This document shows positions 22,194 to 52,961 of a stretch of DNA of 54,974 nucleotides, piece by piece (position 1 is the stretch's first letter; each line of letters starts with the position of its first letter). The DNA comes from Candidatus Magasanikiibacteriota bacterium (lineage in GTDB: Bacteria; Patescibacteriota; Patescibacteriia; Magasanikbacterales; 2-02-FULL-50-9b). The notes under the pieces are model-generated. The model was not told where the DNA came from. It worked only from the letters and a program-made list of their open reading frames with translations, and did not search any database. The translations under genes and the position numbers were made by a program. The stretch covers positions 1 to 54,974 of the forward strand of contig CAITMK010000009.1 of assembly GCA_903893485.1 (NCBI GenBank), given 5' to 3'.

Positions 22194-25100
22194 TTATTTT
22201 AATAGAAGTGTATTCACACCACCTGGAACATACTGACCTGCATACAATGAAGTCTCCGGCGACGTATCAGTATCAGAAGCACGTAACATGGTGAACAGAT
22301 GGAATTGATCCGCATTTGCCGCATCTGGCTTTAAGTTATCAGTATTGAATGTTGAAACTAATCTCCAATAATGACCATTTGCATCTGGCGTTACATTTCG
22401 ATACCATATCGCAACTTTTGCAGCCGCAATTGGCGCAGGAAGTACAGAATTCCTTGAAAGCCAAACTACGTAAGCTTGACTAGATTGTGAAGCGGCAATA
22501 GTTCCAATAAGAGTACGCGTTTTTGGAATGAAGGCGTTTGCATCATTGATGCCCACAGCAGAATCTATTTGCGCCCACCATGGCCCCTTTGTTAAACATC
22601 CATCACGCCAAGCAATAATTGCCGACGGAATTGCGGTGGCACTAACTTTTATTTCATCAATCATTTCCGCCGAACTCCAACCATTTTTTCCATTACAATA
22701 AATTGCAGGCGGAGTCGCGCCTGAATAAATTTCATTACCAGGAACACTCGCACCGATATGAAGACCCCACGTTTCAAGTGATACAGGATTTCCATTTATT
22801 GTTTGCGTGACAGATTCAATACCTGTTACAACAACACGATAATCACCCGGCAAACCATTTGGCTCAATGTCCTGATGCTGAACAGATGCATTGGTTGATA
22901 CGACAAGCTGTGGAATAGAATAAGCAAAAGCACCGCCCGTTATGTCCGACTCAATCGTTTGTCCATTTGCATATAATCTCAATTGAGGACTTACTGTAAG
23001 ACGGTACGCAGCATCTGGACTAAAACATGCGCGCACCGTTCCAATAAGCGGGCCTGTATCGAACGAATATGTTTGCGTTTGATTAACTTCGCCACTCGGG
23101 GTACTAGTTGGCATTACCAAAATCGGAAAGGCATTTTCAGTTTTCAACTGAGAATCGTATACTACCGCCGAATTTGAATCACCATAACGAATATTACCTG
23201 ACAACCGAACTGGCAACCAAGGCAAGGTTGGATCTGAGAATGCAAAAGTCACTGGAACAACTGATGTAGATGGCAGTTTAACGTATGGACTCAAATTTAA
23301 ACCAGGTGGACTATTGTGTACCGGGTCATAAACGCTCAAATGAATTCCATTTAATCGATTTGTTTGCTTTCCACAACTCAAGTATTCGTCAGGAATGCGC
23401 GCAAGATTATTCAGCAAAACACCGGTTGCAGTTCCGCCGTTAGTTACCGTTGGATCCCCTCCATTATAGGTCTCGTATTTCACATCATAAGTTCCATTTT
23501 TCACTGCAGTAATATATCCGATGTCCCATAGTTCTTTATAAGGAACATGTGAAACGCCTCCTGGGAAATGGTAATCGACATTTCCTGGTCCAAACGCAGC
23601 GACATTTGGACAATCTATCACGCCTGGAAGACAGCCCGTTGAAATTAATCTGCGTACACCAACACGCATACCAACGATAAATGGCTGAGGTTCTTTATCG
23701 ATTGTTGATGACGCCCCAATTGATGCAAATTTAAGCGGAATATTACTTACATTTAAACCTGTCGGCTGTCCAGACAAACCGTATGTAGCAATTTGTCCGT
23801 GGGTAAACAAAGCACCATTTACATTATTACTATCATCTAAGCTGAATATGTGGGCACTAAACCAGTGACTATCAAATTCACTATATACCGGAAGAATATC
23901 ACCCAAACTAGGCGCCGGTCCTTTTTCTACGAAACCCGAACAATCTGACTTACAAGCCTGCGTACCATATTGATACGTTCCCGCAGGATAACTTCCATTT
24001 GGGCCAGCCGCGCCCGCGCCAATATCATTTTTGTCACACACTTCAGTGCCATTTTTTATACCGTCACCGCAATAACCACCAGATACATATGCTTTTTTAC
24101 ATGACGTGGTGCAGTACTGACACGTATTTTTCTGACCATATGCTGGTACACATGGAATACCGTTTTGACCGCCCACTGAATATGGTTTTGTACTATTAGC
24201 TGTTGCAGGATTCGATGGATCGGTTCCGTTATCACATTCTTCACCAGTGCCCGGCGTGAATTTACCATCACCGCAACCTGGTGGCGTCGTTGGGGTACCT
24301 GGAGTCGTTTGAATTTTTTCGCAAACAGGAACACCCGCGGTAGCATTTGTCCATTTACATGGATTTGCATCAGTATGTTTATTACATTTTCGTACACAAC
24401 TATTTGCATAATCAGTTTGATCTCCGTCACAGTCCTCTCCATGATCGGCATTCACGGTACCATCGCCACAATATGGACCATACGCTTTACAATCCCAGTT
24501 GCAAGAATCAACTTGATTGATTGCATATTTTGATCCAATCGTAACCGCACCAACACCGGAATTAATTTCACACATCTCAACGCCTGGTTGAATAATGCCG
24601 TCACCACAAGCGCCAAGCGAACTGACTAAAACTTTTGATTTAACACCGCAATCTGCTGGACAATGATTATATTTTCCATTCAGCGCTTTACCATCGTCAC
24701 AAGTTTCGACACCCACTTGAATTATGCCGTCGCCACACAAAGTAACTGGCGTTTGCGGCCCATATTTACATTGACTCGTACAAACCGCTGTTGAGCTACC
24801 ATATGTGGTTGAGTCATTAATCGTTACTGTTTTACCTGGTGGATCACATTGTTCGCTGCCGCCAATCGAGCCATCGCCACAAACCGCATCTGCAACATAC
24901 GTATTGCCTGTGCAGAAAGAAAGATTTACACGGCCAGACGCCAAAACCGTATCTTTAATATAACCTGCCCAGTTATTCGTCAAAGAAGAATCCTGCTCGA
25001 ATGAAATGCCAAGTTGGTAATCAGCGCCGCTATTAATTGTTCGGTAATGATACGCTTCTGAACCAGGGTTACATTGATACTTTTGTGATTTTGCATTCCA

Positions 25101-28100: not shown

Positions 28101-31100
28101 TGTCCAACTGCCATTTAATAGCTGCTGCACGGTTCCATAATCCGTTGTGGTGTAATTGCCAGGAGACAGTTCGATTGAAGCAAGTTTACACGCAGCATCG
28201 TTGTCGATAAGCGTTGCAGCGGTCTTAAAGGTAAAACAATATCCAACGCCAACAGGACAGCCCTTCATTGGAACCATCATTTTGCCGTTCACACCAACGC
28301 CCTTCGTGTTGGTACTCACTTCAGCAATATATGTTGTATTCAAGAATAGCGGCGCTTTTGGCTCAATGGTGTACTGATACACGTTATCATCCGCATTCAT
28401 GGTTGTCGGTGTAAAATCAGTTGTTGCGGTTGCCACTGCGGTATCACATTCATGATCTTTTTTGGTACCCGTACATTGAAAAAGTGAGAACGTAAAAGGC
28501 GATTCTGTTTTATCTGCGTTCAGCAAAACAACCGGTTGATTAAACGTTACCGATACCAATGACGTACGACAAACAGGCGTCGCCGCAGACCACATAATTG
28601 ATGGGCTTGGACTACGAATTCCATCGATGGAACACTGCTCGTAAATTCGTGGTGGACCCGGATTAATTACTAATGTTCCCGTGCCGGTTTTCAAAGCACC
28701 TTGTTGCATGGTTGATGCAGTGATATCAATTGACGCACCATCTTTCGTTGGTGTTTTCGCATCCAAAAGGGTTGTTGCAGCTGTTGGATTTAATGCTGCT
28801 GCGATCAAAAAATTAGAATCAACCGCTTGCGAAGGTTTCCACCCCCACTGATACACCGATGGATCCAGAATCTGACAATGATCAACTGGATATGGCACTG
28901 GCGACCAATACACTCTATTCTGTTTTGCATCAACGATCGTGCCCAAATTTTGCGTAACAAAACTTGGTGGATCGATTCCTACTTTATCAATCAAACAAGG
29001 TTCGTTAGTTGGGCCCGTGCTAAACGTAAAACAATACACAAAACCCGAACCTGGTTTACAGGTACTGAGTTGATCTGCTGGTGCACGTACTGGTAAGCCA
29101 CTATCAATACCCGCGATCTGATTAGAAATAGAAACGCGATAAGTTGAAGAAATTGCTAAATTTTGTGGCGTTACAAAAATACTTGAATACGCGCTTGTGC
29201 TGTATGCACTTACTTTCAAATTTTTCAGCGAAACCAATGTTGGATCCGTTTGCGTACAAGGATCAGAGATATCCCCGGTACATTTTTCAACAATGATGCT
29301 GCTTTTTGATCCTGAAAAAACATTTACTGTTTTAGGATCAATATTTTCAGTAAATTTAATGGCAATTTGCGCATTGTTACAAGCGCTGACTGTACTAGGC
29401 CAAACCGATGAAGGCGATGGTGATGGAATTGAATTTGTTGCCGTGGCTAAAGTATTACACTCTTCTTTGATTTCTGGTGGCTGCGAAACCGCGCACGAAT
29501 CGCCGGTTGAAAAACACCACAAAAATGCTGCGGAAACTTTTTTGCTTGCGCTTATACATGATGTACCACACGAACCATCCGCGCAACAAATATTGCCGGT
29601 TTTGCAAGCGCCCGCAACCACGCGGCAATCTGAAACTGCAAAATAAACAGAGTTACTACAAGTACTTGGGTTAGTATCACAAATATTTTTTGTTGCTTTT
29701 CCATTTATAACGAGGGATAAACGTACTCCACCACTCACTGCGCTTGCTGGTACCATGATGTTAACCTTGCCATCTGTCCAAATAGAACCTGTTTTTGGCG
29801 CCAATCCAACTACATGATCAGAAAAAATAGCAACACCCGGAGTTGTCCCAAAATGCTCACCAAAAAATGAAATTACAAGTGAACCATTCGCCGGGCCATT
29901 GTCCGCTTTAATTGCACAAACCTGTGGACCTGGTTTATCGGTATTTACTGTGAAATTCTGGATGTTTGAACCGGTTTTATTGCCATATGGATATACTCTA
30001 ATTCCATATTTGGCAACTGGAATATTTGGAACCTTAACAATAATTTGTTTATTCCCCCAAAAACCGGCTGCACATTGTGCAGGAAAATTAGTATCAGCCA
30101 CAACTTGTTGATCCGTTGGATTTCCGGATCCATCAAGTACTACAAAATAAACTTTATTTGGCACCGTACCAAAACCAGTACCCGTAAGCGTCACGTAAGT
30201 GCCAACACCCCCAGCTGCTGGTGCGACAGAATTCAAACTTAATACATTATCAGGATTCGCAGGCCCTTTCCCCGTGGTAGCAGTTGACGATGCAGTCACC
30301 AAAAATTCTAATGGATTTGTCGTAATACCTTTAATAACTGCCTGCACATTAATAAATCCAGGATCCATGTCTGGCAAAGTGGCGGTAATAGTATTTGGCG
30401 TAATTTGTGCCCACGTGGCATCATTTGCAGAATATCCACCAAAAAATAATTTACGATCTACACTGGGCGATGAAATATCATCAGTGCCTAAAAGAGAAAC
30501 CTTGGTACCAGAAAAACCAGAATCTGGAATCAATCCACAGATACCAGGGCGTACTACGTCGGTAATTTTAAATTGCTGGAGATATAAACCGGTTTGGTTG
30601 TCGGTTGTGTCAATCGATGTTGCGGAATTTTTAATCTGAATCGCACCGCTTTTAGCACCATCTGGAACGCGCACCACCACCTGATCATTTGACCAGCCAG
30701 CATCACAAGCCAAAGGCGCTTCAACATCATCAGTATCTGTTTTTGGATCACCTAAAAAGGTCACGGATCCAAAATTCGTTCCAAAACCATCGCCCGAAAT
30801 AGTTATGTAAGAACCTGGCGCACCATCTTGAGGCTGAACATCTTTGATAATCGGCGAACTTGAGCAAACATGTTTTACTGGATCACAAAAACCGTTTCCA
30901 CCCGCACATTGCGATGAAGCTGTACAAGCTGAATTCGCACACAATCCACATTCACCATTAGCAGCACTACAATCAATTGCAATTTCAGTTGGATCCGTTA
31001 CGCCGTTTACCGATTGAACTTTATTGAAACAATGTGCAGCATAAGAAGTTGTATGAATTTGCGCTTTGCCCAAATTACCTGCCACATCCATCGCGTCAAC

Positions 31101-32264
31101 TTCAATGACATGCGCCGTACCTGGTGCATCGCCCTTCGTGTTGAATTTCTGTGAAATAATATAAAGTTGCTGACCCGTATTCCCCGCTGGATAAACTGGC
31201 TGAACTGTTTCCAGCAATTTTCCATCAACCAAAATTCTACCATATGCAATACCGTCGTTATCAGAAAGCAAAGCTTTTACTGGGACAAAAGATTCTGATG
31301 GAATTTTACCATTGTCTGGCGGAGTCGTATTTGAAATGTTTGGTGCGGTGGTATCGATATCAGTACCAGCCGTAAAGGTAAATTTACAATTAACGCCAGT
31401 GCATACCAAAATTTTACCCGTTACCGCAGCGTGAATTGAAGTTGATAAACCGCCAACTAATGAAACATTATATTCATCTGGGTCAAAACAATGCAACGAA
31501 TCATTCGGCGCTGGACACGACTTTGAAGGAATAAATGTAATCGTATCAGCATCAACCGTAACTGCTCCGTCAACTTTCGTACCAGCTTTATTTGTGACTA
31601 TGAAATTACTGCCGTAAGAAACCGTTGATTCGTCAACAGCCTGATTAAAAACAACATTTACGCGTATATTTGCAAATTTTTGAAGTCCTCTTGGCGATCC
31701 AAAATTAACCGTAAGAGCGCCAAAACCACTACCTCCACCACCACCCAACCCAGTGCCACCACCAATACCAACATCAGTAGTACCTCCACCACCATTCGCG
31801 AGCGGTGACCCTGTGGCGGTTAAAAAAGATCGAATAATAAATTCTGAAATACCAAACGAAGAAAGTACAATAACCAAACCAATAACACCGTTGGTCAAAA
31901 TTCGTTTTGCTTTTTCAGCCGTTTCTTCGGAACCACCTGCCGTCATGTAGGTAAAACCGCCGTAAATAATTACGCCGATTACAATAACGCCCATGAGGCT
32001 AAGGAAAATACGAATGATGTTCGCAATGATCACCGTAAATGGCGTGCTGCCAAGCCCAGATGTTTGCTGAATCGTTTGCAAACCAGTATCGCCCGGCTGA
32101 ATTTGATTGGTGCCGGAAACAGCAGGTGCAGCCTGACCGCCAAGAACTGGAGCCGTATTTTGTGCATAAACTACCGATGGCGCGTGTGTTGGGCCAAAAA
32201 ATAATCCGCCAAGCAGTACTAAACCAAAGCTGATTTTTACAAACAAATTACGGAGTTTTGCCAT
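22194..32264 (-). CDS. Giant (3356 aa) surface protein: signal peptide + VirB2/TrbC-pilin-like two-helix module + Gly linker + Ig-like/IPT-TIG/Cys-rich repeats + C-terminal beta-rich region
   Basis: Uninterrupted 10 kb ORF.
- aa 1-150 match the N-terminus of the upstream 648-aa protein.
- GGGGTTDVGIGGGTGLGGGGGSG forms a linker.
- Four IPT/TIG-like units (..GSYITISGDGFG.., ..GTYVTLTGTGFG.., ..SLVISFFGEHFG..) lie at about nt 29650-30865.
- Four ~270-aa supermodules follow.
- Six CGDG..C(D/E) repeats are present. Confidence 0.85.
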   Translation of the reverse strand: MAKLRNLFVKISFGLVLLGGLFFGPTHAPSVVYAQNTAPVLGGQAAPAVSGTNQIQPGDTGLQTIQQTSGLGSTPFTVIIANIIRIFLSLMGVIVIGVIIYGGFTYMTAGGSEETAEKAKRILTNGVIGLVIVLSSFGISEFIIRSFLTATGSPLANGGGGTTDVGIGGGTGLGGGGGSGFGALTVNFGSPRGLQKFANIRVNVVFNQAVDESTVSYGSNFIVTNKAGTKVDGAVTVDADTITFIPSKSCPAPNDSLHCFDPDEYNVSLVGGLSTSIHAAVTGKILVCTGVNCKFTFTAGTDIDTTAPNISNTTPPDNGKIPSESFVPVKALLSDNDGIAYGRILVDGKLLETVQPVYPAGNTGQQLYIISQKFNTKGDAPGTAHVIEVDAMDVAGNLGKAQIHTTSYAAHCFNKVQSVNGVTDPTEIAIDCSAANGECGLCANSACTASSQCAGGNGFCDPVKHVCSSSPIIKDVQPQDGAPGSYITISGDGFGTNFGSVTFLGDPKTDTDDVEAPLACDAGWSNDQVVVRVPDGAKSGAIQIKNSATSIDTTDNQTGLYLQQFKITDVVRPGICGLIPDSGFSGTKVSLLGTDDISSPSVDRKLFFGGYSANDATWAQITPNTITATLPDMDPGFINVQAVIKGITTNPLEFLVTASSTATTGKGPANPDNVLSLNSVAPAAGGVGTYVTLTGTGFGTVPNKVYFVVLDGSGNPTDQQVVADTNFPAQCAAGFWGNKQIIVKVPNIPVAKYGIRVYPYGNKTGSNIQNFTVNTDKPGPQVCAIKADNGPANGSLVISFFGEHFGTTPGVAIFSDHVVGLAPKTGSIWTDGKVNIMVPASAVSGGVRLSLVINGKATKNICDTNPSTCSNSVYFAVSDCRVVAGACKTGNICCADGSCGTSCISASKKVSAAFLWCFSTGDSCAVSQPPEIKEECNTLATATNSIPSPSPSSVWPSTVSACNNAQIAIKFTENIDPKTVNVFSGSKSSIIVEKCTGDISDPCTQTDPTLVSLKNLKVSAYSTSAYSSIFVTPQNLAISSTYRVSISNQIAGIDSGLPVRAPADQLSTCKPGSGFVYCFTFSTGPTNEPCLIDKVGIDPPSFVTQNLGTIVDAKQNRVYWSPVPYPVDHCQILDPSVYQWGWKPSQAVDSNFLIAAALNPTAATTLLDAKTPTKDGASIDITASTMQQGALKTGTGTLVINPGPPRIYEQCSIDGIRSPSPSIMWSAATPVCRTSLVSVTFNQPVVLLNADKTESPFTFSLFQCTGTKKDHECDTAVATATTDFTPTTMNADDNVYQYTIEPKAPLFLNTTYIAEVSTNTKGVGVNGKMMVPMKGCPVGVGYCFTFKTAATLIDNDAACKLASIELSPGNYTTTDYGTVQQLLNGSWTPLAWIAQGFGADKCVYLDPNAFTFNWGIDLAHAGYAAVDPDNKWSDTGWAQYIAAYKETGDSPLSILATAQNITGSSLLSVAFTNPHITSYDPLDCPGSTSGVCLNSLVDITFSTNINLDSLQNKLFLYECPATTNLTTDDCAFADSDLKNALVPTIDANDNHHVLFASQNFDPQRKYRLVLKGGVLSDAGLPFADFNYPATNAQYFTWTFITGTAACAIDHVNVKPVDAIAQAQGQVQQFLVGAFGQADACHPDGQPLNPNAYTWSWTSSVPLVAQETAASSTPDHAFSINANGPVVNGFQSTNITAQTMGKSDTVPWKLVCNASAISCPAGTQVGKDGCCYKQLGFDTVYPDPNATDICRNTLITAHVNELVDTTTVSSTSFMVGYATDAATCAGGDYRGGFCYKKLPYTVDVVNHTNSKADPSTSEALLTASVGDMLPANTQVKVMISKTNPTDAANADYSVLANSGVAVTGQSWTFTTGPNPCALNKVQIFPDQINFQKLNAPEEAIAYGLSHQGNRDVPLAAISGKYDWTWNWASQFVKVAKIDPIEKKTQQKTEMVAGGQNGKTFVTGLAKIVSDIYFDPSTKGHDVVGRLPVWAAICDTPWYSDAQTPLTDILNGQNMSFWYCETPTGQKPLPHLVPIIDPVADTSANAADVYTVLNAFHLTDPTTGAAVGFRIEKNLKNYSPLEWYYQKEFKGDVTPQVVAGLDAVRVANTLYVAYGNQSTNSSYTNMLIISLSDPATPELQAIFDQILANLQTSTNLVDDGLCYQGAEASTQQCNKDADCPTVPQTPLTPVQMASRVFVNTNELSGTGSDANLKSGIRCSITFDAAGSHFQAMVYDAAQKKISFQTDPVYAKIVADAQNVLPLDCNNSGPSGLCSTASTPGPISCYSSADCPSNGTCVMPATPTTCQIPYTKFIRDTNRVIDVATLTRSLEKAHAFANKYPVVATGSFVPGLTASTWPQWTDFMSQLGIAQVVDPLNSYAGCTGDFDTATCWNAKSQKYQCNPGSEAYHYRTINSGADYQLGISFEQDSSLTNNWAGYIKDTVLASGRVNLSFCTGNTYVADAVCGDGSIGGSEQCDPPGKTVTINDSTTYGSSTAVCTSQCKYGPQTPVTLCGDGIIQVGVETCDDGKALNGKYNHCPADCGVKSKVLVSSLGACGDGIIQPGVEMCEINSGVGAVTIGSKYAINQVDSCNWDCKAYGPYCGDGTVNADHGEDCDGDQTDYANSCVRKCNKHTDANPCKWTNATAGVPVCEKIQTTPGTPTTPPGCGDGKFTPGTGEECDNGTDPSNPATANSTKPYSVGGQNGIPCVPAYGQKNTCQYCTTSCKKAYVSGGYCGDGIKNGTEVCDKNDIGAGAAGPNGSYPAGTYQYGTQACKSDCSGFVEKGPAPSLGDILPVYSEFDSHWFSAHIFSLDDSNNVNGALFTHGQIATYGLSGQPTGLNVSNIPLKFASIGASSTIDKEPQPFIVGMRVGVRRLISTGCLPGVIDCPNVAAFGPGNVDYHFPGGVSHVPYKELWDIGYITAVKNGTYDVKYETYNGGDPTVTNGGTATGVLLNNLARIPDEYLSCGKQTNRLNGIHLSVYDPVHNSPPGLNLSPYVKLPSTSVVPVTFAFSDPTLPWLPVRLSGNIRYGDSNSAVVYDSQLKTENAFPILVMPTSTPSGEVNQTQTYSFDTGPLIGTVRACFSPDAAYRLTVSPQLRLYANGQTIESDITGGAFAYSIPQLVVSTNASVQHQDIEPNGLPGDYRVVVTGIESVTQTINGNPVSLETWGLHIGASVPGNEIYSGATPPAIYCNGKNGWSSAEMIDEIKVSATAIPSAIIAWRDGCLTKGPWWAQIDSAVGINDANAFIPKTRTLIGTIAASQSSQAYVVWLSRNSVLPAPIAAAKVAIWYRNVTPDANGHYWRLVSTFNTDNLKPDAANADQFHLFTMLRASDTDTSPETSLYAGQYVPGGVNTLLLK
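24030..24890 (-). repeat. Six cysteine-rich CGDGxxxxxxExCD repeats inside the giant ORF
   Basis: The repeats are CGDGSIGGSEQCDPPG, CGDGIIQVGVETCDDG, CGDGIIQPGVEMCE, CGDGTVNADHGEDCDGD, CGDGKFTPGTGEECDNG and CGDGIKNGTEVCDKN. They resemble the Myxococcus cysteine-rich repeat class. Confidence 0.7.
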
Positions 32265-34194
32265 ATTCTAATAAATTGCAATTTTCATTCGATGAAACAC
32301 CATTACAGCAGGTATAAGTCCCCGTATCGGTTGTTGGATCTGTGTACGTACATTGTAACCCAATTTGCGAATTTTGACCCGAAGCCAAAAAACAATTCTG
32401 ATACACATCCTGCACACTTGAAGGCAACGCTGGCGCATACGATTGACTCTTCGCAAAAGAAACATGTTTAATATTCAATTTAGTAACTGAATTTGTTACA
32501 CCCGCAACTGTTGTTGTCTGATCAACAGACTCTTTCCAAAAACCGGCCTGCGCTCGAGGATTTTGCGCGACCAATCCAACGCCGCTAAACGAACTTGCCT
32601 TCATTAAGGAATCAAATGTTGCACTAACTGCACTATCGGCGGTAAATGGATTCGTTGCATCTTTTCCATTTGCGCCAAAAAGCGGTTCAACAGATGTAAT
32701 TTTTGGATCGGTAATTTTGGTAGCATCCGTCGTGTTGAATGAGAAATAAAAATCATCAACCGGGCTCCCCGATGGCTTGCCGCCGGTAGTACTCCATGGT
32801 GTTTTTGCATTTTCACCACCACCATCAAGCGCGTTGCCCGCAGTATCGGTGATTCCCTGCAACGATAATTTTGGATTTACCTGTGCATTCACCCCTGGCT
32901 GTGCAAGCACACCAGACAATGCGCGCACTTCTAATTTTTCGCTTGCTGGCAAGCAAAAAATCTTTTGACCACACGCATTGGTGCCACATTCCGCAGCGGT
33001 TGTAAAATCAATAATATTAAATCCCCCGCCAGCACGCCACACACCAGACACAAACGAACCATCTGGGTTTGCAACGCGAATATTTTTAAACTGCTTTGAA
33101 TGTCCATCGTATTCCCCAACCGCTGAAGCAAGATTAACCGGCTCCGAAAAAGTTACTTGCACAGTAATATTGCGCGCATAGGTACCACCTGCCGTTGGAA
33201 TTACTGAAATAATACGAGGCGGCGTTAAATCGAGTTCCGTGCTAACCGTAAATTTCCATGAATATCCACCGCTAAATCCAGAAAAAATACTTTGGCCTGC
33301 AGGAGTTACGCGTTTAATATCTGGCGAAAGTTCCACGGTATATGGCGTTTGTGCTGTTGCACTTCCTAAAAATGGAATCGGATCGTAAACCACAACCGTT
33401 GAGTCCGCACCTTCGGAGCCAATAGTGACCCACACATCTGTTGGCTTGAGCGCGGTATTGCGACCCTCAGCAGTTGCATAGATCAAAAAGGTTGAACCAT
33501 TCACTGGGCCACTTACCAAACGCTTTATTTCTTTGCCATTTGCATCGGTTGTTGTTTTGTATACCGCATCTGGTGATGTTGCATCAATCACACTTGTTGG
33601 ATCGATTGGAAATTTGTATACAACTTGAATCATTTTGTTGCGAGGAACGCCAACTGCATCACGAGCTGGATCGTGCGATTCGATAACGCGGCCAAGCGCT
33701 GAGCCTCCGTCGTAGCCAGAAAGTAAATCAACGCCACCCGAACCATTCGATCCAACAAGTTCAGTTCCACCAGTTAATCCACCGGCGCCAAACAATCGGC
33801 TCATGATATACGAGGTAATCGCGTAGGATGAAGCAATAATCACCAAACCAATCACGGTATTTTTTAAAACGTCTTTTGCCTGCGTCACCTGCTTTTCATC
33901 GCCAGCAGCGGTCATCCACAAATAGCCGCCATAAATAACAAAGCTGATTACCACCGCGCCAAGTAATCCAAAAAGAATATTTATGATGCGGCCAATAATA
34001 ACGCCCAATGATGAGCTGCCTAAACCAGCGGTTGAATTAACTGAATTTAAATTTTGAAGCGCGTCAGTTGCAGGAGCAGTCGTTTGCGCATACACCGACG
34101 AAGCGCCGTGAAAAAACAAAAAACCGACCGCGCACATGAGCGCTGCCGTAAGTAGAAGATTTTTTTTGTAAGTGGAAAAAAGAACGAAGCGCAT
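32248..34194 (-). CDS. 648-aa surface protein: signal peptide + pilin-like two-helix module + Gly linker + Ig-like (SbsA/Big_5-type) domains
   Basis: The N-terminus ..SSVYAQTTAP..GLGSSSLGVIIGRIINILFGLLGAVVISFVIYGGYLWMTAAGDEKQVTQAKDVLKNTVIGLVIIASSYAITSYIMSRLF is paralogous to the giant protein's N-terminus. ..LDLTPPRIISVIPTAGGTYARNITVQVTFSEPV.. is Ig-like. The stop overlaps the giant gene's start by 17 nt. Confidence 0.8.
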   Translation of the reverse strand: MRFVLFSTYKKNLLLTAALMCAVGFLFFHGASSVYAQTTAPATDALQNLNSVNSTAGLGSSSLGVIIGRIINILFGLLGAVVISFVIYGGYLWMTAAGDEKQVTQAKDVLKNTVIGLVIIASSYAITSYIMSRLFGAGGLTGGTELVGSNGSGGVDLLSGYDGGSALGRVIESHDPARDAVGVPRNKMIQVVYKFPIDPTSVIDATSPDAVYKTTTDANGKEIKRLVSGPVNGSTFLIYATAEGRNTALKPTDVWVTIGSEGADSTVVVYDPIPFLGSATAQTPYTVELSPDIKRVTPAGQSIFSGFSGGYSWKFTVSTELDLTPPRIISVIPTAGGTYARNITVQVTFSEPVNLASAVGEYDGHSKQFKNIRVANPDGSFVSGVWRAGGGFNIIDFTTAAECGTNACGQKIFCLPASEKLEVRALSGVLAQPGVNAQVNPKLSLQGITDTAGNALDGGGENAKTPWSTTGGKPSGSPVDDFYFSFNTTDATKITDPKITSVEPLFGANGKDATNPFTADSAVSATFDSLMKASSFSGVGLVAQNPRAQAGFWKESVDQTTTVAGVTNSVTKLNIKHVSFAKSQSYAPALPSSVQDVYQNCFLASGQNSQIGLQCTYTDPTTDTGTYTCCNGVSSNENCNLLEYGKTP

Positions 34195-38366: not shown

Positions 38367-38443
38367 TGGTGGGCGATCGAAGATTCGAACTTCGGACCTC
38401 GTCATTATCAGTGACGCGCTCTAACCAACTGAGCTAATCGCCC
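38367..38443 (-). tRNA. tRNA-Ile (anticodon GAU), CCA encoded
   Basis: GGGCGAT TA GCTC AGTTGGTTA GAGC G CGTCA CTGATAA TGACG AGGTC CGAAG TTCGAAT CTTCG ATCGCCC A CCA folds as a perfect cloverleaf. Confidence 0.95.
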
Positions 38444-38700: not shown

Positions 38701-39204
38701 ATGGAGCTCATTCGAGTATTGAGAAGACGGCGGGATGCTGATGATTTGCTGATCAAGCAGTGCGCGGGCAAAGAAGACGCATCGCGAGCGATCATTTCGT
38801 TTGCGAATACTGCCTGGGGTGGCGACTACCGAGTGCTTGTCACCGCGTATTACAGCCTGGGCGAAAACAAGCACCAACAAGGCCGCGACGTCTGCGAACT
38901 CGTGCAGCACGCCTGCTTTCCGGGGTCCAACGACTTCAGCGATGCCAGTGCGCGCGGCGCTGTTGAAGTGTGTCTAAACCCCATCAACGGTTTGGTGGGA
39001 CACACGCTCATCCAGGTCAACGGACCGAAGATGATGCCGCCAAAAATCAGGATCGCCGGCGATCACTTCGCACATCTGGTGATGGCAAAGGGGCCAGTAC
39101 CAGACCAAAATGGCGCCGGTCCAGTGAAGAATCAGGCTGTTTTCTTTGTTCCCCCGACCGCGCGATCCGCCACGACTGAACCAACCACGCAAAAACCCGC
39201 GTAA
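38701..39204 (+). CDS. Orphan 167-aa protein on a locally high-GC island
   Basis: A strong SD (AAGGAG at 38689-38694) lies 6 nt before the ATG. The ORF has its own promoter and terminator and spans the whole island. Four other ORFs in other frames overlap it, which indicates elevated G+C. No family recognised. Confidence 0.55.
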   Translation: MELIRVLRRRRDADDLLIKQCAGKEDASRAIISFANTAWGGDYRVLVTAYYSLGENKHQQGRDVCELVQHACFPGSNDFSDASARGAVEVCLNPINGLVGHTLIQVNGPKMMPPKIRIAGDHFAHLVMAKGPVPDQNGAGPVKNQAVFFVPPTARSATTEPTTQKPA

Positions 39205-39215
39205 GCGGACCTCAC

Positions 39216-39266
39216 CAAGACTTTATGAGCACGCGCTGTGGCGCCGCTTGTAAAGTCTTGTTTTTT
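39216..39266 (+). terminator. Terminator of the orphan ORF
   Basis: CAAGACTTTA-25 nt-TAAAGTCTTG followed by TTTTTT. The T-run overlaps the stop codon of the convergent 607-aa gene. Confidence 0.5.
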
Positions 39267-41088
39267 AATAAATCAAGATCTTTCCTTTTGTGCTGACTTT
39301 AGAATTCACCGCGCTTTGAAATGCTGAAGCACTTTTTCCCATAATTACTGCGCCCAAAACGGTTTGAATGGTGGTATGCCCTTTTACCAGCACGCTTGTG
39401 TCTGTGGTAATCACAAAAGTTTGTGCCACATCTGATGCAATAGTAACTGGCGATGTAAACGCCGTCGAAGTTGCTGAAGCCGCATTTAAAATTTTTGATA
39501 ACGCTCCCGTATATACCAAATTAGCAGCTCCCACACCATCTTTATAGATCATCACTTGGGCAGTTGATTTTTTATCCAACTTTACATTATTTTTTGCAAT
39601 AATATTCAATTGAAGCCCAACAATATCAGCAGGTGTTTTAGCGGCAGTTTTTTCATTTTTGATAACAAATTTTCCAATAATTTGCTCGGTGGATTTAACG
39701 TTTACCCCAGCTTTTATCGTACTCGCCGCTGTCACACTTAAATGAACTGGGGAAAACTGCGCGATGGATTGTGGTGCTGAATCACCAAGCGGATACACGG
39801 TATCACTTTTTTTATCAGGTTCACGAACTGTAACACTGACTAATTTACTACCGATAAGAATCGGTGTGCTCGTAGCGATTACACTATCGATTTGGTCTGC
39901 GGTGACGGCTAATGTAATAGTTGCTTTTGGTTGCAAAATGATTTTTCCGTTCATTGGAAAATTTATAGAATCCGAACCAAATCCTGTTACACCTGTTATC
40001 TTTGCATCTTTTTTGCCCGAAGTGTTCGCCCCAACCGATGACACAACCGTCTGACGATTATCCTTCGTTGAAAAAATTGTCCAATACTGCGCAGCATCCG
40101 GCATCGATGGCAATGAGATTAAATTGATTTTACCCTGATACACCTTATTTGAAGCTAGCTGCAAATTAATACTTTTTAATTCCACCGGCTTTGCTGCCGT
40201 AGAATTTATCTGAATAAATCCAATGGTTTGGTTTGCAGAAACAGGATAAGTTGCATTTGGAACTGACCAATTTTTTGGCGTAAACGCAACGGTTATCGTA
40301 CCGGCTGCAATTGGTGTAAATGTGTACGAAATAGGTGTCGGCACCACCACAACAGGATTTGGTGGTGAAAGAACCGGAGGAGGCGTAATTACCGGCGGTG
40401 TTATCACAACTGGATTTGGTGGTGACAAAACAGGTGGGGGTGTGATGACTGGCGGTGTAACAACTGGTGTGGTAACCGTGTCGGTGGTTGACACTGGTGC
40501 GGGTACGCCGCCAGTGTAGGTATTGTAATTACTTGCTGATCCGGCTTGAAAAATCAGTGCGGCCACATCATCAATTTCCGGATATGGGGCGACTGAAAGC
40601 GCATAACCCGAAACGCCATCATTATTACGTATATAAATATATTTTAAAAGCGTTTTAACTCCGGTTGGGTATTCTGACGGCTGAATTGCAATGTTTTTTG
40701 AAACTACCCAATTTGAAACATACTTTGAAAAATTTAAAGGATTAAGCGATTTCGCAACCATGTCAGGAGTCGCGGTATCATAAAGAACAGATTGGCCACC
40801 AACAACAGTCGCTGTATCCGCATTATTATCAGTATTTACGGTTATAATTGTGCCAATCGATTGCGGATCAATATAAAAAACAGGTGGCGTAGTTAAATGA
40901 GCTGAGTTTAAACCAACGTTAACGGTAACCGGTTGCTTTCCACCGCCATACAAAACCTGAATTTTTAAACTTGCAATAGTGGGCTGCGTCGCGGCAAATG
41001 CAGATGAAGCAAATCCAAACAAAATCAGATTCATGGTTGTTGCGCCAATAAGAGTTGCCGTGAAAGAACGAAAGAGCAATTTTTTCAT
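39265..41088 (-). CDS. Secreted beta-rich surface protein with proline-rich tandem repeat
   Basis: ATG 41088 gives MKKLLFRSFTATLIGATTMNLILFGFASSAFA (signal peptide). The protein contains TPPVITPPPVLSPPNPVV(I/V) twice. No family recognised. Confidence 0.6.
   Translation of the reverse strand: MKKLLFRSFTATLIGATTMNLILFGFASSAFAATQPTIASLKIQVLYGGGKQPVTVNVGLNSAHLTTPPVFYIDPQSIGTIITVNTDNNADTATVVGGQSVLYDTATPDMVAKSLNPLNFSKYVSNWVVSKNIAIQPSEYPTGVKTLLKYIYIRNNDGVSGYALSVAPYPEIDDVAALIFQAGSASNYNTYTGGVPAPVSTTDTVTTPVVTPPVITPPPVLSPPNPVVITPPVITPPPVLSPPNPVVVVPTPISYTFTPIAAGTITVAFTPKNWSVPNATYPVSANQTIGFIQINSTAAKPVELKSINLQLASNKVYQGKINLISLPSMPDAAQYWTIFSTKDNRQTVVSSVGANTSGKKDAKITGVTGFGSDSINFPMNGKIILQPKATITLAVTADQIDSVIATSTPILIGSKLVSVTVREPDKKSDTVYPLGDSAPQSIAQFSPVHLSVTAASTIKAGVNVKSTEQIIGKFVIKNEKTAAKTPADIVGLQLNIIAKNNVKLDKKSTAQVMIYKDGVGAANLVYTGALSKILNAASATSTAFTSPVTIASDVAQTFVITTDTSVLVKGHTTIQTVLGAVIMGKSASAFQSAVNSKVSTKGKILIY
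40345..40465 (-). repeat. Two tandem ~57-nt units encoding TPPVITPPPVLSPPNPVV
   Basis: The direct repeat is visible in both the DNA and the protein. The two copies differ at several mostly synonymous positions. Confidence 0.7.
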
Positions 41089-41113
41089 ATAAAAGATACC
41101 AGCAGTATACCAC

Positions 41114-41145
41114 AAAATAAAAATCCGCTCCTTGCGGAGACGGAT
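41114..41145 (-). terminator. Terminator of the 16S rRNA transcription unit
   Basis: The minus strand reads ATCCGTCTCC-GCAA-GGAGCGGAT followed by TTTTTATTTT, downstream of the 3' processing-stem half. Confidence 0.6.
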
Positions 41146-41238: not shown

Positions 41239-42738
<1,500 letters not shown>

Positions 42739-42826
42739 ATGAACAACTTTATGTGTTCCGATTTATAGATTTTTATATTCGAGGACAACTCGCACTGAAA
42801 CTCGCTATAAACAAGTTTCAATTTGA

Positions 42827-48630: not shown

Positions 48631-50937
48631 TTATTTCGCCCACCGCGCCGCCTCTTCAAACTTCACGCTTAAGAGTTGCGAAACCCCATCATCTCCCATC
48701 GTCACACCGTACAACACTTCGCCCTTGCCCATGGTCGCGCGGTTATGCGTGATCACCATGAACTGCGTGCGCTCTGCAAGCTTTTCCAAAATGTCAGCGT
48801 AGCGAATTGAGTTTGCTTCGTCGAGTGCGGCGTCGACTTCATCCAAAATTACGAATGGCGATGGATTACTTGCCATGATTGCGCAAAGCAGCGCCACAGA
48901 CGTCATTGCGCGCTCGCCGCCGCTGAGCACCGAGATATCCTTAATGCGTTTACCAGGTGGCTGCGCGTGAATATCAATACCGGCCAAAACCGGCTCTTTG
49001 GAAACATATTTTGCGATCTCGCCTTCTTCCAATCGTTCGGCCACATCAATTTGCGATTCTGTTTCGCCATCTTCAGCGGTTGCAACTGCAGGGTCTTCAT
49101 AGATTGGCACCAATTTTGCAGTACCGCCACGAAATAATTGCGAGAAAAAATCTTGAAATAATTCATTAAGCGTTTCAAGCGCTTCGGTCCGACGCGTTCG
49201 CAAAACTTCATCGAATTCTGTAATCGTTGATTCAGTGTTGGTAAGCGCTGCCGACAAATCTGCAAGCTGCGTTGTCAAAAATGTATAGCGCGTATTTGTT
49301 TCTTCAAACTCTTTTACAACTTCTGGATCAATACCACCAACAATGTCGAGCTGGTGTTTCAAATTATACATGCCCTGCTGCGCAGATTCTGGCGAGCTAA
49401 TAGGCGACTCTGGGGCTGCGGCCATCACCTTTTCCATTTCGTCCGGAATTTCCAAACGCATTTCTTCGCGAATGCTTTCAGCGCGTGTTTCGTATTTGGC
49501 GCGCTCAATTTTGTAATTCGTTAGGCGCTGCTCAATTTCATGGCCCGCGCGCTGCTCATCTTGCAACCGGCGCTGTACGGCAAAAAATTGCGATTTCTTT
49601 TCTTGCTCGCGATGCGATTCGTTATGCATGCGATCGCTCAAATCCTTAAGCGCACTATCCAAAACCAAAATTGAATTCTGATTTTCTTCGATGCGCTTTA
49701 ACACAACCGGATCCTGCGGGGCTTCTTTTGGCGCTTCAGGCGCTGGACGTTGCAAACGTTTCACCAATGTTGTTGTGCGTTCAGCGAGGGCATCGCATTC
49801 ATCTAAAATTCCAAATACTTCTTCCAGATTTTTTGCAGCACGTAATTTTTTATTTACTGCTGCCTGATCCGCACGCACCGCATCTAACTCTTCAATAATT
49901 TTCGTCAGCGGCAATGGCGCCCACTGCACTTCTACTTCGCGACGAACACGAGAAATTTCCAATGCAGTTTTCAAGCGACCATCTTCTTCGCGAAGTGTCG
50001 CACGTTGTTTAGATAACGCTTCGTATTCGCGCTGCAAACCAATAATCACTTCGCTTTGCGTTTCTTCTACTTCTAATTTATGAAGTTCGGCGAGTGTTGC
50101 ATCGTAAATATTTTTCTTTGCGATCAAATCTTTTTCGTGTGCCCCAACTTGAATATTCAAATTTCCGAGACGACCCGAAACATCGTGCCATACCGTTCCG
50201 TAATACGCGCGCTGCAAATTCAAAAGGCGCGCCGCAATATCATCGCGCTCTTCCAGACGTTTCACTGCGCGCTGCAAACCTTTGAGCCGTGGTTCGATTT
50301 CCGCGATGAGCTGCCCTGCTTGCGCAATATTTTCGCGCGTCGCGTGAAGTTTCAGCAAAGCCTGATGACGCTTAAGCTGAAACTCTTTTACGCCTGCAGC
50401 TTCATCAAAAAATTCTTTACGCTCTTTTGGCGTCACTAATAAAATCTGATCAATAAGGCCTTGACCAATCACGGTATACGTCTTCTGACCAAAATGTGCC
50501 TTTGCCAAAAGGAGCTGAATATCAGACAAGCGTGCCTTTGCGCCATTAATTAAATATTCACCATTACCATCGCGATACAACCGACGCGTAATAACAATTT
50601 CACCGAGCGAGAGCGGATCTGGCTCGCCGTTTTCATCGGCCGCGGCCGTGCGTGTATCTTCGTTATTTAAATACAGTGCAACTTCCGCAAATCCAAGGCG
50701 TGCTTTTTTATCCGAGCCCGCAAAAATAACATCTTCGGATTTTTTGCCGCGGAGCGTCTTCATCGACTGCTCACCCAATACCCAACGCACTGCATCCGCA
50801 AAATTCGATTTCCCAGAACCATTTGGCCCCACGATTGCCGTAATACTGCGGCGCGAACCATTCTGCTTCTGAAATTCGAACGTCACTTTTTTGGCAAAAG
50901 ATTTAAAACCTTGGATTTCAACGCGCTGGAGAAACAT
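48631..50937 (-). CDS. smc: SMC-family ATPase, short form (768 aa) without a recognisable hinge domain
   Basis: MFLQRVEIQGFKSF.. and Walker A GPNGSGKSN. C-terminal signature LSGGERAMTSVALLCAI and Walker B FVILDEVDAALDE. The middle is continuous heptad-like sequence with a Pro-rich break (RLQRPAPEAPKEAPQDP). Confidence 0.8.
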   Translation of the reverse strand: MFLQRVEIQGFKSFAKKVTFEFQKQNGSRRSITAIVGPNGSGKSNFADAVRWVLGEQSMKTLRGKKSEDVIFAGSDKKARLGFAEVALYLNNEDTRTAAADENGEPDPLSLGEIVITRRLYRDGNGEYLINGAKARLSDIQLLLAKAHFGQKTYTVIGQGLIDQILLVTPKERKEFFDEAAGVKEFQLKRHQALLKLHATRENIAQAGQLIAEIEPRLKGLQRAVKRLEERDDIAARLLNLQRAYYGTVWHDVSGRLGNLNIQVGAHEKDLIAKKNIYDATLAELHKLEVEETQSEVIIGLQREYEALSKQRATLREEDGRLKTALEISRVRREVEVQWAPLPLTKIIEELDAVRADQAAVNKKLRAAKNLEEVFGILDECDALAERTTTLVKRLQRPAPEAPKEAPQDPVVLKRIEENQNSILVLDSALKDLSDRMHNESHREQEKKSQFFAVQRRLQDEQRAGHEIEQRLTNYKIERAKYETRAESIREEMRLEIPDEMEKVMAAAPESPISSPESAQQGMYNLKHQLDIVGGIDPEVVKEFEETNTRYTFLTTQLADLSAALTNTESTITEFDEVLRTRRTEALETLNELFQDFFSQLFRGGTAKLVPIYEDPAVATAEDGETESQIDVAERLEEGEIAKYVSKEPVLAGIDIHAQPPGKRIKDISVLSGGERAMTSVALLCAIMASNPSPFVILDEVDAALDEANSIRYADILEKLAERTQFMVITHNRATMGKGEVLYGVTMGDDGVSQLLSVKFEEAARWAK

Positions 50938-50946
50938 AGTGGGCGT

Positions 50947-51124
50947 ATTGTAACACACGAGGGGCCGGAGTTCCAGAATTTTTTGGGAGCCGTGTCAATT
51001 TTCCCCTGCGGGAAAATTGCACTTAGCTCTCGGCGAGCCATTTTTTGCCTTCGGCAAAAAAACCGTGCTGGCTCGCCTCCGAGAAACTCCCAAAAAATTC
51101 TGGAACTCCGGCTGTGTATTACAA
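50947..51124. repeat. 178-nt compound palindrome (25-bp perfect outer stem enclosing two hairpins)
   Basis: CCGGAGTTCCAGAATTTTTTGGGAG (50965-50989) pairs perfectly with 51087-51111. Inside are hairpins CAATTTTCCC-ctgc-GGGAAAATTG (50996-51019) and TTTTTTGCc-UUCG-gGCAAAAAA (51041-51061), plus stem 51026-51039/51070-51086. The outer extension is GTAACACAC/GTGTATTAC. Confidence 0.8.
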
Positions 51125-51179
51125 ACTCATTATGTTTTCCGACAATAAAAAAACGGATGGAGCAGAACACTCAGCACAT

Positions 51180-51208
51180 TTGACACCCCGCCCCACGTCA
51201 CCTACAAT
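51180..51208 (+). promoter_or_regulatory. rny promoter
   Basis: TTGACA-17 nt-TACAAT, the same hexamers as the 16S promoter. It lies about 160 nt upstream of the rny ATG. Confidence 0.5.
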
Positions 51209-51370
51209 ATAAAGGTACGATAACATTCAGAAAATCCTGTCCGAATTCCTCCCAAAAAAGCATTTATGTTCGCAAAAATCCTCAACTTTTCTCCGACTAT
51301 TCAAATCCTCATCAGTTAAGGACTGCGTTTTTCATGGCTATCAAATTCGGGCGGGTCTAAACACCCCGCT

Positions 51371-52885
51371 ATGACACTCTTATACATTTTAATCGCGGCC
51401 GTGGTTGCTGCAGCTGCTGGCTACACTGCCCGCATCTACATCGCAAAGTCCCAGGCCAACTCCGCCGAAATCCAAGTAGAAAAAATCCTCGCTGACGCAC
51501 GCGCCAAAGAACAAGAAATCCTCATGAAGGGTCGCGAAAAAGCGATCCAGATGATCGACGAAGCAAAAAAGGACGAAGACAATCGTCGTGAAGAATTAAA
51601 AGCAGCGTCACTTCGCCTTGAAAAACGCGAGGTAACTTTTGAACAGAAAATTTTGGAGCTCCAAGACAAAACTGCCCGCATCCAAACCCAAACCGAAAAG
51701 CTTAAAGCCTCACAAGAAGAAATCGACAAACTCCGCGCGCAGCAAATCGAAAAGCTCCAGACCGTTGCCGGCCTCACCCAGACCGAAGCCGAAGCGCGCC
51801 TCATGCAAGCCGTCGAGGACGACACCAAAGAAGCGCTTAATTCCCGCCTCATGAAACTTGAGCGCGAATCAAGCGAATACTTCGAAAAAGAAGTAAAGAA
51901 AATTTTGGCAACCGCAACCTATCGCTACGCCGGATCACACGCAAGCGAAAACACCACCACAACAGTTCATCTTCCAAGCGAGGAAATGAAGGGTCGCATC
52001 ATTGGTAAAGAAGGTCGCAACATCAAAGCGATCGAAAAGCTTACCGGCTGCGAACTTGTCATCGACGAAACACCAGAATCAATCATGATCTCTGGTTTTT
52101 CACCAATCCGCCGCCATGTGGCACGCATCACCATTGAAAAGTTGGTCGCCGACGGCCGTATTCACCCAGCTCGCATCGAAGAAGTTGTCGAAGAAGCAAA
52201 AAAAGATTTGGCAATTGATGTGCGCAAAGCTGGTGAAGACGCGCTCTATCAGCTTGGCGTGACCGGCATCGAACCTAAACTTATCTCAATTATCGGCCGC
52301 CTTAAATATCGCACCTCATACGGCCAAAACCAATTGACCCACGCAATTGAGGTTGCATATTTATCTGGCATGCTCGCAGATGAACTCGGCATCGACCGCA
52401 CACTTGCTCGCAAGGCTGGTCTTTTGCACGACGTTGGTAAGGCGATTGATCACGACACACAAGGCTCTCACCCAGAGCTTGGCTATCAGCTCATGAAAAA
52501 GTTTGGGCTGTCCGAAGAAATTGCATACTGTTCCCTTGCCCACCACGAAGACAAACCGAAAACAGCGTTGGGTGCAATTATCAAAGCAGCTGATGCGATC
52601 TCTGGCGCGCGCCCTGGTGCCCGCCGCGATTCCTACGAACAATACGTTCGCCGCTTGGAAGAATTGGAAAAAGTTGCAACTAGTTTCGAGGGCGTTGAAA
52701 AAGCATATGCAATCCAAGCTGGCCGCGAAATGCGCGTGTTCGTGCGCCCACAAGATGTGGACGACTACGGCGCATACACCATTGCCAAAGAAATTGCTAA
52801 AAAAATTACCACGGACCTGCATGTGCCGGGTGATGTGAAAGTTACGGTGATTCGCGAATCACGCGTAATTGAATACGCGAGATAA
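51371..52885 (+). CDS. rny: Ribonuclease Y
   Basis: N-terminal TM segment, coiled coil, KH domain (MKGRIIGKEGRNIKAIE) and HD domain (..GLLHDVGKA..HH..). Confidence 0.93.
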   Translation: MTLLYILIAAVVAAAAGYTARIYIAKSQANSAEIQVEKILADARAKEQEILMKGREKAIQMIDEAKKDEDNRREELKAASLRLEKREVTFEQKILELQDKTARIQTQTEKLKASQEEIDKLRAQQIEKLQTVAGLTQTEAEARLMQAVEDDTKEALNSRLMKLERESSEYFEKEVKKILATATYRYAGSHASENTTTTVHLPSEEMKGRIIGKEGRNIKAIEKLTGCELVIDETPESIMISGFSPIRRHVARITIEKLVADGRIHPARIEEVVEEAKKDLAIDVRKAGEDALYQLGVTGIEPKLISIIGRLKYRTSYGQNQLTHAIEVAYLSGMLADELGIDRTLARKAGLLHDVGKAIDHDTQGSHPELGYQLMKKFGLSEEIAYCSLAHHEDKPKTALGAIIKAADAISGARPGARRDSYEQYVRRLEELEKVATSFEGVEKAYAIQAGREMRVFVRPQDVDDYGAYTIAKEIAKKITTDLHVPGDVKVTVIRESRVIEYAR

Positions 52886-52961
52886 TGCCTGTTGATAACT
52901 CCTTGCGCATTTTTAGCCAAAACCCTATAATTAAGCGGAATTTACTTATTTATCATTTTAT

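Follow-up and report, generated by a model that had tools for sequence, protein, structure and literature searches.

The window, that is, the whole stretch of 54,974 nucleotides that was analysed (contig CAITMK010000009.1), contains a divergent gene pair with a long palindrome in its spacer. On the minus strand lies the gene of a short SMC protein (768 aa, positions 48631–50937), and on the plus strand the rny gene, which encodes RNase Y (51371–52885). No protein identical to this RNase Y was on record in an exact look-up; its nearest relatives share 75–78% identity with it, and its homologues belong to Candidatus Magasanikbacteria (Patescibacteria). The divergent smc/rny pair was present in every relative fetched. 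The palindromic element starts 10 nt upstream of smc, the ATG of which is at 50937, and the rny promoter (TTGACA-17-TACAAT, plus strand, 11 of 12 matches in a promoter scan) is located just past its other end, at 51180–51208. Both positions agree with the first-pass annotation of this DNA. The rny promoter belongs to the context of the element and is not a part of it.

As revealed by an inverted-repeat search, the palindrome is built on a perfect inverted repeat of 26 nt (5' arm, X, 50964–50989; 3' arm, X', 51087–51112), the arms of which are 100% complementary and form the outer stem around an interior of 97 nt. The perfect complementarity had already been recognized, with arms given as 25 nt (50965–50989 and 51087–51111), which are in fact one nucleotide longer. 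A comparable inverted repeat was found in 0 of 100 dinucleotide shuffles of the window. The MFE was −103.3 kcal/mol for the plus strand and −108.3 kcal/mol for the minus strand, versus −53 ± 4 for the shuffles (z = −12.4 and −11.4, respectively), and a Y shape, with two hairpins in the interior, was the predicted fold of both strands. Palindromes may come from chimeric assembly or amplification. Nevertheless, both halves of the element were reproduced with 0 differences in the independent assemblies of four lake-water runs, which indicates that it is not an assembly artefact, and homologous copies were found across many independent assemblies (see below). With z values of about −12 and no match among the shuffles, the probability that the palindrome is due to chance or to faulty assembly is negligible.

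The core of the element (50985–51093, plus strand), which corresponds to the match of a covariance model, consists of a junction stem (GGGAG/CTCCC), a first hairpin (HP1), a linker and a second hairpin (HP2). HP1 (50996–51019, plus strand), detected by the inverted-repeat search, is a 10-bp hairpin, CAATTTTCCC-CTGC-GGGAAAATTG, the stem of which covaries in the family described below. HP2 (51028–51084, plus strand), delimited by the predicted folds and by helices 2–4 of the family alignment, has four parts: a TCTC/GAGA clamp, an 8-bp stem GGCGAGCC/GGCTCGCC (51032–51039 / 51070–51077), an apical hairpin T6GCC-TTC-GGCA6 (51041–51061) and a 3' internal loop of 8 nt, ACCGTGCT (51062–51069). The Y-shaped interior proposed in the first-pass annotation, with the HP1 hairpin and the 8-bp stem, was therefore present, but not the apical c(UUCG)g tetraloop. 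Since GCCTTCGGC has 9 nt, the apical hairpin holds no canonical c(UUCG)g, and its tip is a GCC-UUC-GGC structure with a UUC triloop.

Outside the perfect arms the pairing continues, as had been observed previously, through TTGTAACACAC/GTGTATTACAA (50948–50958 / 51114–51124), where 10 of 11 positions are complementary. Palindromy reaches ~30 nt past the arms, to ~50928 and ~51140; the local alignment score of the flanks was 22, versus 11.2 ± 2.0 in shuffles, and was attained by 2 of 2000 of them. The left outer layer of this quasi-palindrome (50928–50963) is native sequence, comprising the −10 box and the beginning of smc with its ATG and initial codons, and it pairs, as the reverse complement, with the right outer layer (51113–51140). 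The latter mirrors, in degenerate form, the −10 and the start (ATGTTT) of smc (TGTGTATTACAA...ATGTTTTCC) and contains TAATAC, the −10 of the weak promoter proposed in the first-pass annotation. The mirrored open reading frames over the element had no homologues in a six-frame search, which bears out their description as artefacts of the symmetry. The query of this search was a six-frame chimeric pseudo-protein, aimed also at spurious ORFs over other copies, and it gave no match at E ≤ 10.

In the relatives, the spacer between smc and rny measures 214–1213 nt and does not align from one relative to another save for one block, ATTGTA(A/G/T/C)CA, the only one common to all of them, which lies 8–20 nt upstream of the smc ATG. 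The variants of this block (ATTGTAaCA, ATTGTAgCA, ATTGTAtCA, ATTGTAcCA and ATTTTATCA) correspond on the coding strand to TGNTACAAT, an extended −10. In the window this conserved extended −10 (TGnTACAAT; TGTTACAAT on the minus strand, 50947–50955) is 9 nt upstream of the ATG, placed between the perfect arm and the smc gene. At the related locus L250 the box is just 14 nt from the rny −35, and for this reason the conserved box was identified as the smc promoter. Promoters homologous to the rny promoter were found in loci L246, L247 and L250. The element is located upstream of both core promoters (the smc extended −10 and the rny TTGACA/TACAAT) and therefore probably lies outside both mRNAs. At most, it alters the upstream context and the spacing of the two divergent promoters. 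No promoter was found inside the palindrome in the consensus scan.

These results bear on the proposal, made in the first-pass annotation, that the element is a 5' leader of smc, transcribed from a weak promoter TTGTCG-18-TAATAC (51116–51145), in which the 26-bp duplex would be a site for RNase III. A long perfect duplex, if transcribed, would indeed be an RNase III substrate, the distance to the smc ATG is short (10 nt) and the two hexamers exist in the sequence. However, the extended −10 that is conserved sits beside the ATG, on the downstream side of the element. TTGTCG-18-TAATAC was missed by the consensus scan and represents a mirror of the true smc promoter that has decayed. Moreover, most relatives that share this gene pair do not have the element, its orientation is reversed in L246 and L247, and its core adjoins unrelated genes elsewhere. 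A leader cut by RNase III is thus very improbable. An intrinsic terminator was also rejected, because at the window locus smc and rny diverge and neither strand has a T run (U tract) 3' of the stem.

Covariance models were built from four copies (R1) and from six copies (R2) of the element, with the plus strand of the window as model sense, and loci of related Magasanikbacteria (L241–L252; 212 kb in total) were searched. In the window, the match spanned 50995–51093 (92–104 bits), and this was the only copy even with the search filters off. At least nine further copies, intergenic and in both orientations, were present in the 212 kb. Those in the smc-rny spacers of L247, which has the Y architecture, and L246, which is degenerate, were first recognized by eye; with respect to rny, they point the opposite way to the window copy. 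With R1, copies were detected at L246:255–349 (minus strand, 43 nt after the trmD stop; E = 6e-9), L248:3157–3253 (plus strand, 20 nt after the rny stop; E = 9e-7) and L241:6817–6911 (minus strand, just after the smc stop; E = 3e-4). R2 added L242:11642–11732 (minus strand, 106 nt upstream of hup; E = 4e-8) and two copies with E values of 1e-8 to 1e-10, L252:8228–8316 (plus strand, 28 nt after the rny stop; hereafter L252a) and L252:8808–8902 (minus strand, orthologue of the L242 copy; hereafter L252b). One more copy, L250:11556–11631 (plus strand, just after the rny stop), had a marginal score and is clearly Y-shaped. The family is thus carried by a clade of Candidatus Magasanikbacteria.

Dispersion was also observed in the four lake metagenomes, where the core segment 51026–51084 matched two further contigs in each run, the flanks of which are unrelated and the depths of which are like that of the window. 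Copies A1, A2 and B were distinguished besides the window copy. As lower bounds, there are at least three core copies per metagenome, and at least two copies each in the genomes of L246 and L252. The contig with the A copy showed no further similarity to smc or rny. In copy A2, HP2 is identical to that of the window at 54 of 54 positions, barring compensated runs (T4/A5 versus T6/A7 in the window); its HP1 stem differs yet still pairs (CAATTTGGC-CAGC-GCCAAATTG), and the linker and the flank differ too.

The copies abut stop codons or promoter boxes, and their neighbours include smc, rny, hup and trmD. Eight of about ten copies flank rny, although ~150 spacers in its surroundings were sampled, and wherever a copy starts at less than 45 nt from a preceding stop codon, it is co-oriented with the gene in question (5 of 5). 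Clustering at rny flanks and uniform orientation after stop codons are unexpected for a purely selfish element. The stem of copy L252a is followed by T7; a U-tract is absent after the stems of most copies.

Comparison with Rfam, which had been named as a check in the first-pass annotation, gave no family match at either stringency. At the gathering score of Rfam 15 only rRNA and tRNA matches were obtained in the window and in the loci of nine relatives, and a permissive scan of 50850–51400 yielded only sub-threshold miRNA and snoRNA noise. Hammerhead or other ribozymes, SRP RNA and 6S RNA were discarded (no motifs, no Rfam match), as were a retron msr/msd (no RT), a parS or dif site (no consensus) and oriC (monotonic GC skew). 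A BLAST search of a phage collection gave no match to any copy. Queries with the element and with 30 nt of flank from copies A and B gave only noise in blastn-short against the window and the relatives; the copies of the relatives are too diverged for BLAST. When the pattern CTCGGCGAGCCN{18,42}GGCTCGCCTSC was run over genome and metagenome contigs, the T-run hairpin occurred in none of the 238 matches listed. This pattern is too GC-rich, and its matches are chance ones in high-GC genomes. A second, specific pattern had no match in viral contigs.

Presence and absence of the element at orthologous sites were then compared between relatives. The smc-rny site of L250 is empty (14 nt), while those of L246 and L247 are filled; within this clade the RNase Y proteins are 89–92% identical. 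No homologue of the element was found in the smc-rny spacers of six other relatives. Conversely, the rny-hup spacer of the window is empty (stop-TGCC-TGTTGATAAC), and L242 has one copy there and L252 two. Similarity is higher between the two copies of L246 than between the copies that L246 and L247 have at one and the same site. Comparison of the empty L250 site with the filled sites of L246 and L247 revealed no direct target-site duplication; the flanks of the element are inverted, not direct, copies. No transposase, integrase, HUH or RT gene was found in the window or among the called genes of the relatives' loci. Since no transposase-type gene was found in the loci examined, mobility of the family is judged from its distribution only. 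The first-pass annotation had set out dispersed copies of the element, and its absence from close relatives with an unchanged smc/rny arrangement, as findings that would speak against a dedicated regulatory element. Both were observed: core copies are dispersed, and the element is missing from most relatives that keep the arrangement. A dedicated function is probably lacking.

The outer arms behave differently from the core. A long outer stem, of 12–27 bp, is present in all full copies, but only a junction stem of 5–6 bp (GGAG.C/G.CUCC) is common to the copies. The remaining arm of each copy is unique in the 212 kb. In the lake metagenomes, none of the additional core copies has the 26-nt arms of the window. 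The smc gene of L251 matches the arm over 16 nt, which was judged to be due to chance. The arms appear to derive from the host flank. In the window, the smc −10 and ATG are native on one side and mirrored on the other. The mirrored native sequence corresponds to the last ~7 codons and stop of rny in L250, to the Arg-stop of rny in L248 and to ~60 nt of the rny promoter in L247. The native side was found 5' of the core, in the model orientation, in 4 of 4 mirrored loci; the polarity of arm copying is drawn from these four loci only. On that polarity, X' of the window would be a templated inverted copy of X.

Wholesale replacement of the arms was observed between the orthologous copies L242 and L252b, in which the core is kept with compensatory changes. 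With respect to L242, L252b has a new perfect 24-bp stem beside the core, with a remnant of the old arm outside it, and this two-layer arm pattern is the same as that of the window.

Taken together, these data are consistent with a model in which the heritable, duplicating unit would be the ~105-nt core, made up of the short junction stem, HP1 with its CWGC loop, and HP2 with the T-run/A-run apical hairpin and the ACCGTGC motif. The long outer stem would not be transported by the element but produced locally: at the folded core, snap-back synthesis or an intramolecular template switch would write the arm as an inverted duplication of host sequence 5' of the core, and later events of the same kind may re-perfect the outer stem. 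Repeated snap-back would explain why a flawless private stem of 26 bp is found here beside an older outer layer that mirrors the smc −10 and ATG and has decayed. This account covers the L252b event only in part, since it does not explain where the new 5' arm comes from. In E. coli, inverted repeats are known to be perfected by template switching at quasipalindromes (PMC7202029), and template switching also creates short inverted copies (PMC9435742). The family resembles the products of these processes (PMC7202029, PMC9435742) in its perfect inverted repeats, which can arise in one step, in its compensated substitutions and indels, and in the arms, which are inverted copies of adjacent sequence. 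Template-switch mutation is a mutational mechanism, however, and alone it leaves the dispersal of the core unexplained.

Perfect 26-bp repeats around a 97-bp segment between divergent promoters might also represent a regulatory site acting at the DNA level, either an inverton or a cruciform or protein-binding site that links the smc and rny promoters or insulates them from each other. The opposite interior of L246 and L247 with respect to the window, the breakage of the contigs of four assemblies within the element and the DNA-type symmetry of the stems (see below) would fit such a site. Nevertheless, the segment lacks an internal promoter, the window contains no recombinase gene, and the arms differ between loci, unlike the sites of a common recombinase. 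The contigs of the four runs show a single orientation of the interior, although contigs drop rare variants. In addition, orientation tracks the native flank in 4 of 4 loci, a correlation that frequent flipping would erase, and most copies of the family are not between promoters. We therefore regard a DNA-level regulatory site as unlikely.

In order to analyse the pairing within the family, a nine-copy covariance-model alignment was fitted to the structure, and the covariation counts were taken from it. Eighty-eight per cent of the cells were paired, versus 64% in shuffles and 33–52% in slid controls. Double-sided changes were found in 22 of 30 pairs (63 cells), whereas single-sided changes of the G-U type occurred in just 3 of 240 cells. 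In HP1 (helix 1), 7 of 10 pairs showed double-sided changes and 95% of the cells were paired. The same covariation picture was obtained with a MAFFT alignment. Indels were also compensated on both arms of the stems, as in T6/A7 versus T4/A5 or AT versus GTGT/ACAC (L241 versus L248). The Y structure is thus kept at an overall identity of ~50–60% between copies. Nearly all of the variation runs from one Watson-Crick pair to another. Such a pattern fits a DNA palindrome under templated correction better than a stem selected as RNA, and we infer that the symmetry of the stems is maintained at the DNA rather than at the RNA level.

Conservation was not limited to paired positions. The HP1 loop (CWGC) and the HP2 internal loop (ACCGTGC) are conserved unpaired motifs, and HP2 is much better conserved than the remainder of the element. 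These motifs, together with the 54/54 identity of HP2, suggest that something may read the core. A kissing interaction of the HP1 loop with the internal loop of HP2 was rejected, as it showed no covariation.

The family might then consist of functional structured RNAs, namely either a small RNA gene or a module, in a 3' UTR or between genes, that would stabilise upstream transcripts, terminate them or be processed by RNase III or RNase Y; the window copy would in that case be transcribed on the plus strand (the model sense). Several observations argue for this: the Y structure with covariation in most pairs of strongly diverged copies, the unpaired motifs CWGC and ACCGTGC, the identity of HP2 between paralogues that otherwise differ, the retention of structure in L242/L252b through compensatory change, the co-orientation of all five post-stop copies with their gene, the T7 after the L252a stem and the gathering of copies around the RNase Y gene. 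Against it, no Rfam family matched, and the scarcity of G-U intermediates, together with the compensated indels, is typical of DNA palindromes. The plus and minus strands fold about equally well, and the strand of lower energy is not consistent among copies. Furthermore, the elements of the window, L246 and L247 are upstream of both promoters, in opposite orientations and with no promoter of their own detected, a U-tract is missing after most stems, and the element has been lost without replacement in many relatives. A structured RNA, and with it transcription of the window copy from the plus strand, is accordingly a possibility that we hold only tentatively. More broadly, the rny clustering, the co-orientation, the conserved unpaired motifs and the conservation of HP2 keep alive a role of the core at the RNA level or in recognition by a protein, with a chance of perhaps a quarter.

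With moderate confidence, we consider the element to be one copy of a lineage-specific, MITE/REP-like family of Y-shaped palindromic DNA repeats, the arms of which are locally templated. Among the identities listed in the first-pass annotation, the MITE-like mobile palindrome is accordingly the best supported, though not in its textbook form, because the long arms are private to each copy and no target-site duplication is present. We give less credence to an extended version of this interpretation, which seems doubtful to us, in which the cores would be strand-polar, self-templating elements that take their arms from a neighbouring promoter or stop, prefer rny flanks and have hairpins that act on transcripts. 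A core would be copied to a new intergenic site, where the folded core would prime snap-back synthesis, so that each copy would build a private perfect stem of 15–27 bp, and the hairpins might serve as 3'-end protection, as entry sites for RNase III or RNase Y, or as insulators of closely packed promoters in CPR genomes, which are very compact.

The closest known things to this lineage-specific repeat family are the bacterial MITEs, above all the Correia elements, and the palindromes of the REP/REPIN type are also close. In Neisseria, the Correia elements (CREE/nemis) have a 26-bp inverted repeat around a core, are found beside promoters and are RNase III substrates; their copies share the terminal repeats, a TA target is duplicated, hundreds of copies exist and promoters are created at the ends (PMC2649163, PMC2229807, PMC10969869). 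Like CREE and MITEs, the present elements are small (100–200 nt), non-coding and intergenic, with an inverted repeat of ~26 bp that encloses a conserved core; they adjoin promoters and gene ends, and their presence varies among related genomes. They also resemble CREE in the long hairpin, which would be cleavable by RNase III if transcribed. Unlike in CREE, the long arms differ in each copy and derive from the host flank, no direct duplication is present, the copy number appears low, and the promoter beside the element is the host's own conserved one. The arm length of 26 bp coincides, but the sequence is private, the flanks are TA...AC and the host is a Magasanikbacterium. Of the features by which MITEs are recognized, the family shows dispersed, small, non-coding copies and presence/absence at orthologous sites, but neither terminal repeats conserved among copies nor a direct target-site duplication.

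REPs are units of conserved sequence of 20–40 nt, REPINs are symmetric dimers of REPs, and RAYTs are the associated transposases. The present elements are like REP/REPIN/BIME, ERIC, BOX and RUP in being dispersed extragenic palindromes, often after stop codons, with a maintained structure; palindromes of the REP type may stabilise the upstream mRNA. They differ from REP and REPIN in the asymmetric Y, in which HP1 differs from HP2, in the ~105-nt core and in the private arms, and no RAYT-like gene was seen in the loci examined, which are part of the genome. The ITRs of parvoviruses and AAV, which form the ends of linear ssDNA genomes, are processed by Rep and switch their interior between flip and flop through hairpin-templated synthesis, are similar in shape only, with a long stem enclosing two small internal palindromes. 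By contrast, the present element is internal to a bacterial chromosome, with no sequence relationship to the ITRs and no replication protein. Since the tests of shared terminal repeats and of target duplication fail, the family falls outside every named family.

Genomes of CPR bacteria, of ~1 Mb, are thought to hold little repetitive or mobile DNA. To our knowledge, and in the literature searched, no interspersed palindromic repeat family has been described in these bacteria. The family characterized here provides a concrete example, in which hairpin-forming repeats come and go among close CPR relatives, abut the promoters and stops of core genes, and seem to build their arms themselves out of host sequence. 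In practical terms, these elements break short-read assemblies, yield spurious mirrored ORFs and could pass for regulatory leaders. If the snap-back mechanism holds, it would connect template-switch mutagenesis with the way in which long perfect hairpins arise in bacteria, and if the elements are transcribed, their clustering at the RNase Y gene would provide a connection with RNA decay, open to test, in an uncultured lineage.

The SMC protein is much shortened in the clade to which the window belongs. It consists of 768 aa in the window (smc, 48631–50937, minus strand) and of 762–821 aa in the related Magasanikbacteria, and the SMC_N profile is matched end to end by this short form. The surroundings of the gene differ among these organisms. 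Immediately downstream of smc, three of the related loci (L242, L243 and L250) carry a gene encoding an SNF2 helicase plus methyltransferase (1496–1907 aa), which is absent from the window. The smc-rny spacer is hypervariable among the relatives, and in L241, L242, L248, L249 and L251 it contains unrelated small ORFs of 69–194 aa, for which no match was found in Pfam.

Within this spacer, the Y-shaped palindromic repeat of the window coincides with breaks in assemblies of lake-water metagenomes. When positions 51022–51115 were examined, the matching contigs of all four short-read runs (X1–X4) were found to end inside the element, at about 51015–51066. The 26-nt arms of the element fall below the word size commonly used in assembly, and the strong hairpins of the repeat family thus seem to fragment assemblies. 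In the related locus L247 (positions 1–100), the contig begins within an apparent additional, incomplete core copy (GCTCGCTCGCCTGCGAGA), the core being the conserved ~105-nt unit of the family. A mirror of the rny promoter is located where the related locus L246 has the ATG of smc, and no smc start was found at that position of L247. This arrangement could be either a true rearrangement or a contig-end artefact.

Copies of the repeat are also present on the other side of rny. L242 and L252 carry one or two of them at the junction between rny and hup (the HU gene), and the window represents the empty form of this site. The junction is extremely tight, since the hup promoter (TTGATA-17-TATAAT, within 52886–52961) begins 4 nt past the rny stop codon.

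Two other regions of the window, both on the minus strand except where indicated, were also annotated. In both a 3356-aa ORF and a neighbouring 648-aa ORF (22194–34194), an N-terminal T4SS_pilin domain precedes Big_5/TIG Ig-like repeats; the products resemble giant proteins of the cell surface or associated with pili. The 16S rRNA gene (41239–42739) is separated from tRNA-Ile(GAT) (38367–38443) by 2.8 kb containing a 616-aa ORF (39265–41115) and a 167-aa ORF (38701–39204, plus strand), neither of them with a match in Pfam. Because of this ORF-bearing gap and the lack of a 23S gene within the window, the rRNA operon is unlinked or interrupted.

Upstream of rny, the structure of the 5' leader (51209–51375) appears to be conserved between the window and L239, L241, L243, L249, L250, L251 and L252. 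A long-range helix encloses ~100 nt; it is formed by CCGAATT (51241–51247) and AATTCGG (51344–51350) in the window and by CCGCACGAG...CTCGCGCGG in the relatives, which represents a compensatory change. A hairpin (GGGCGGG...CCCCGC, about 51349–51369), located 3' of this helix, adjoins the rny ATG. Rfam returned no match for this leader, through which RNase Y might regulate its own expression.
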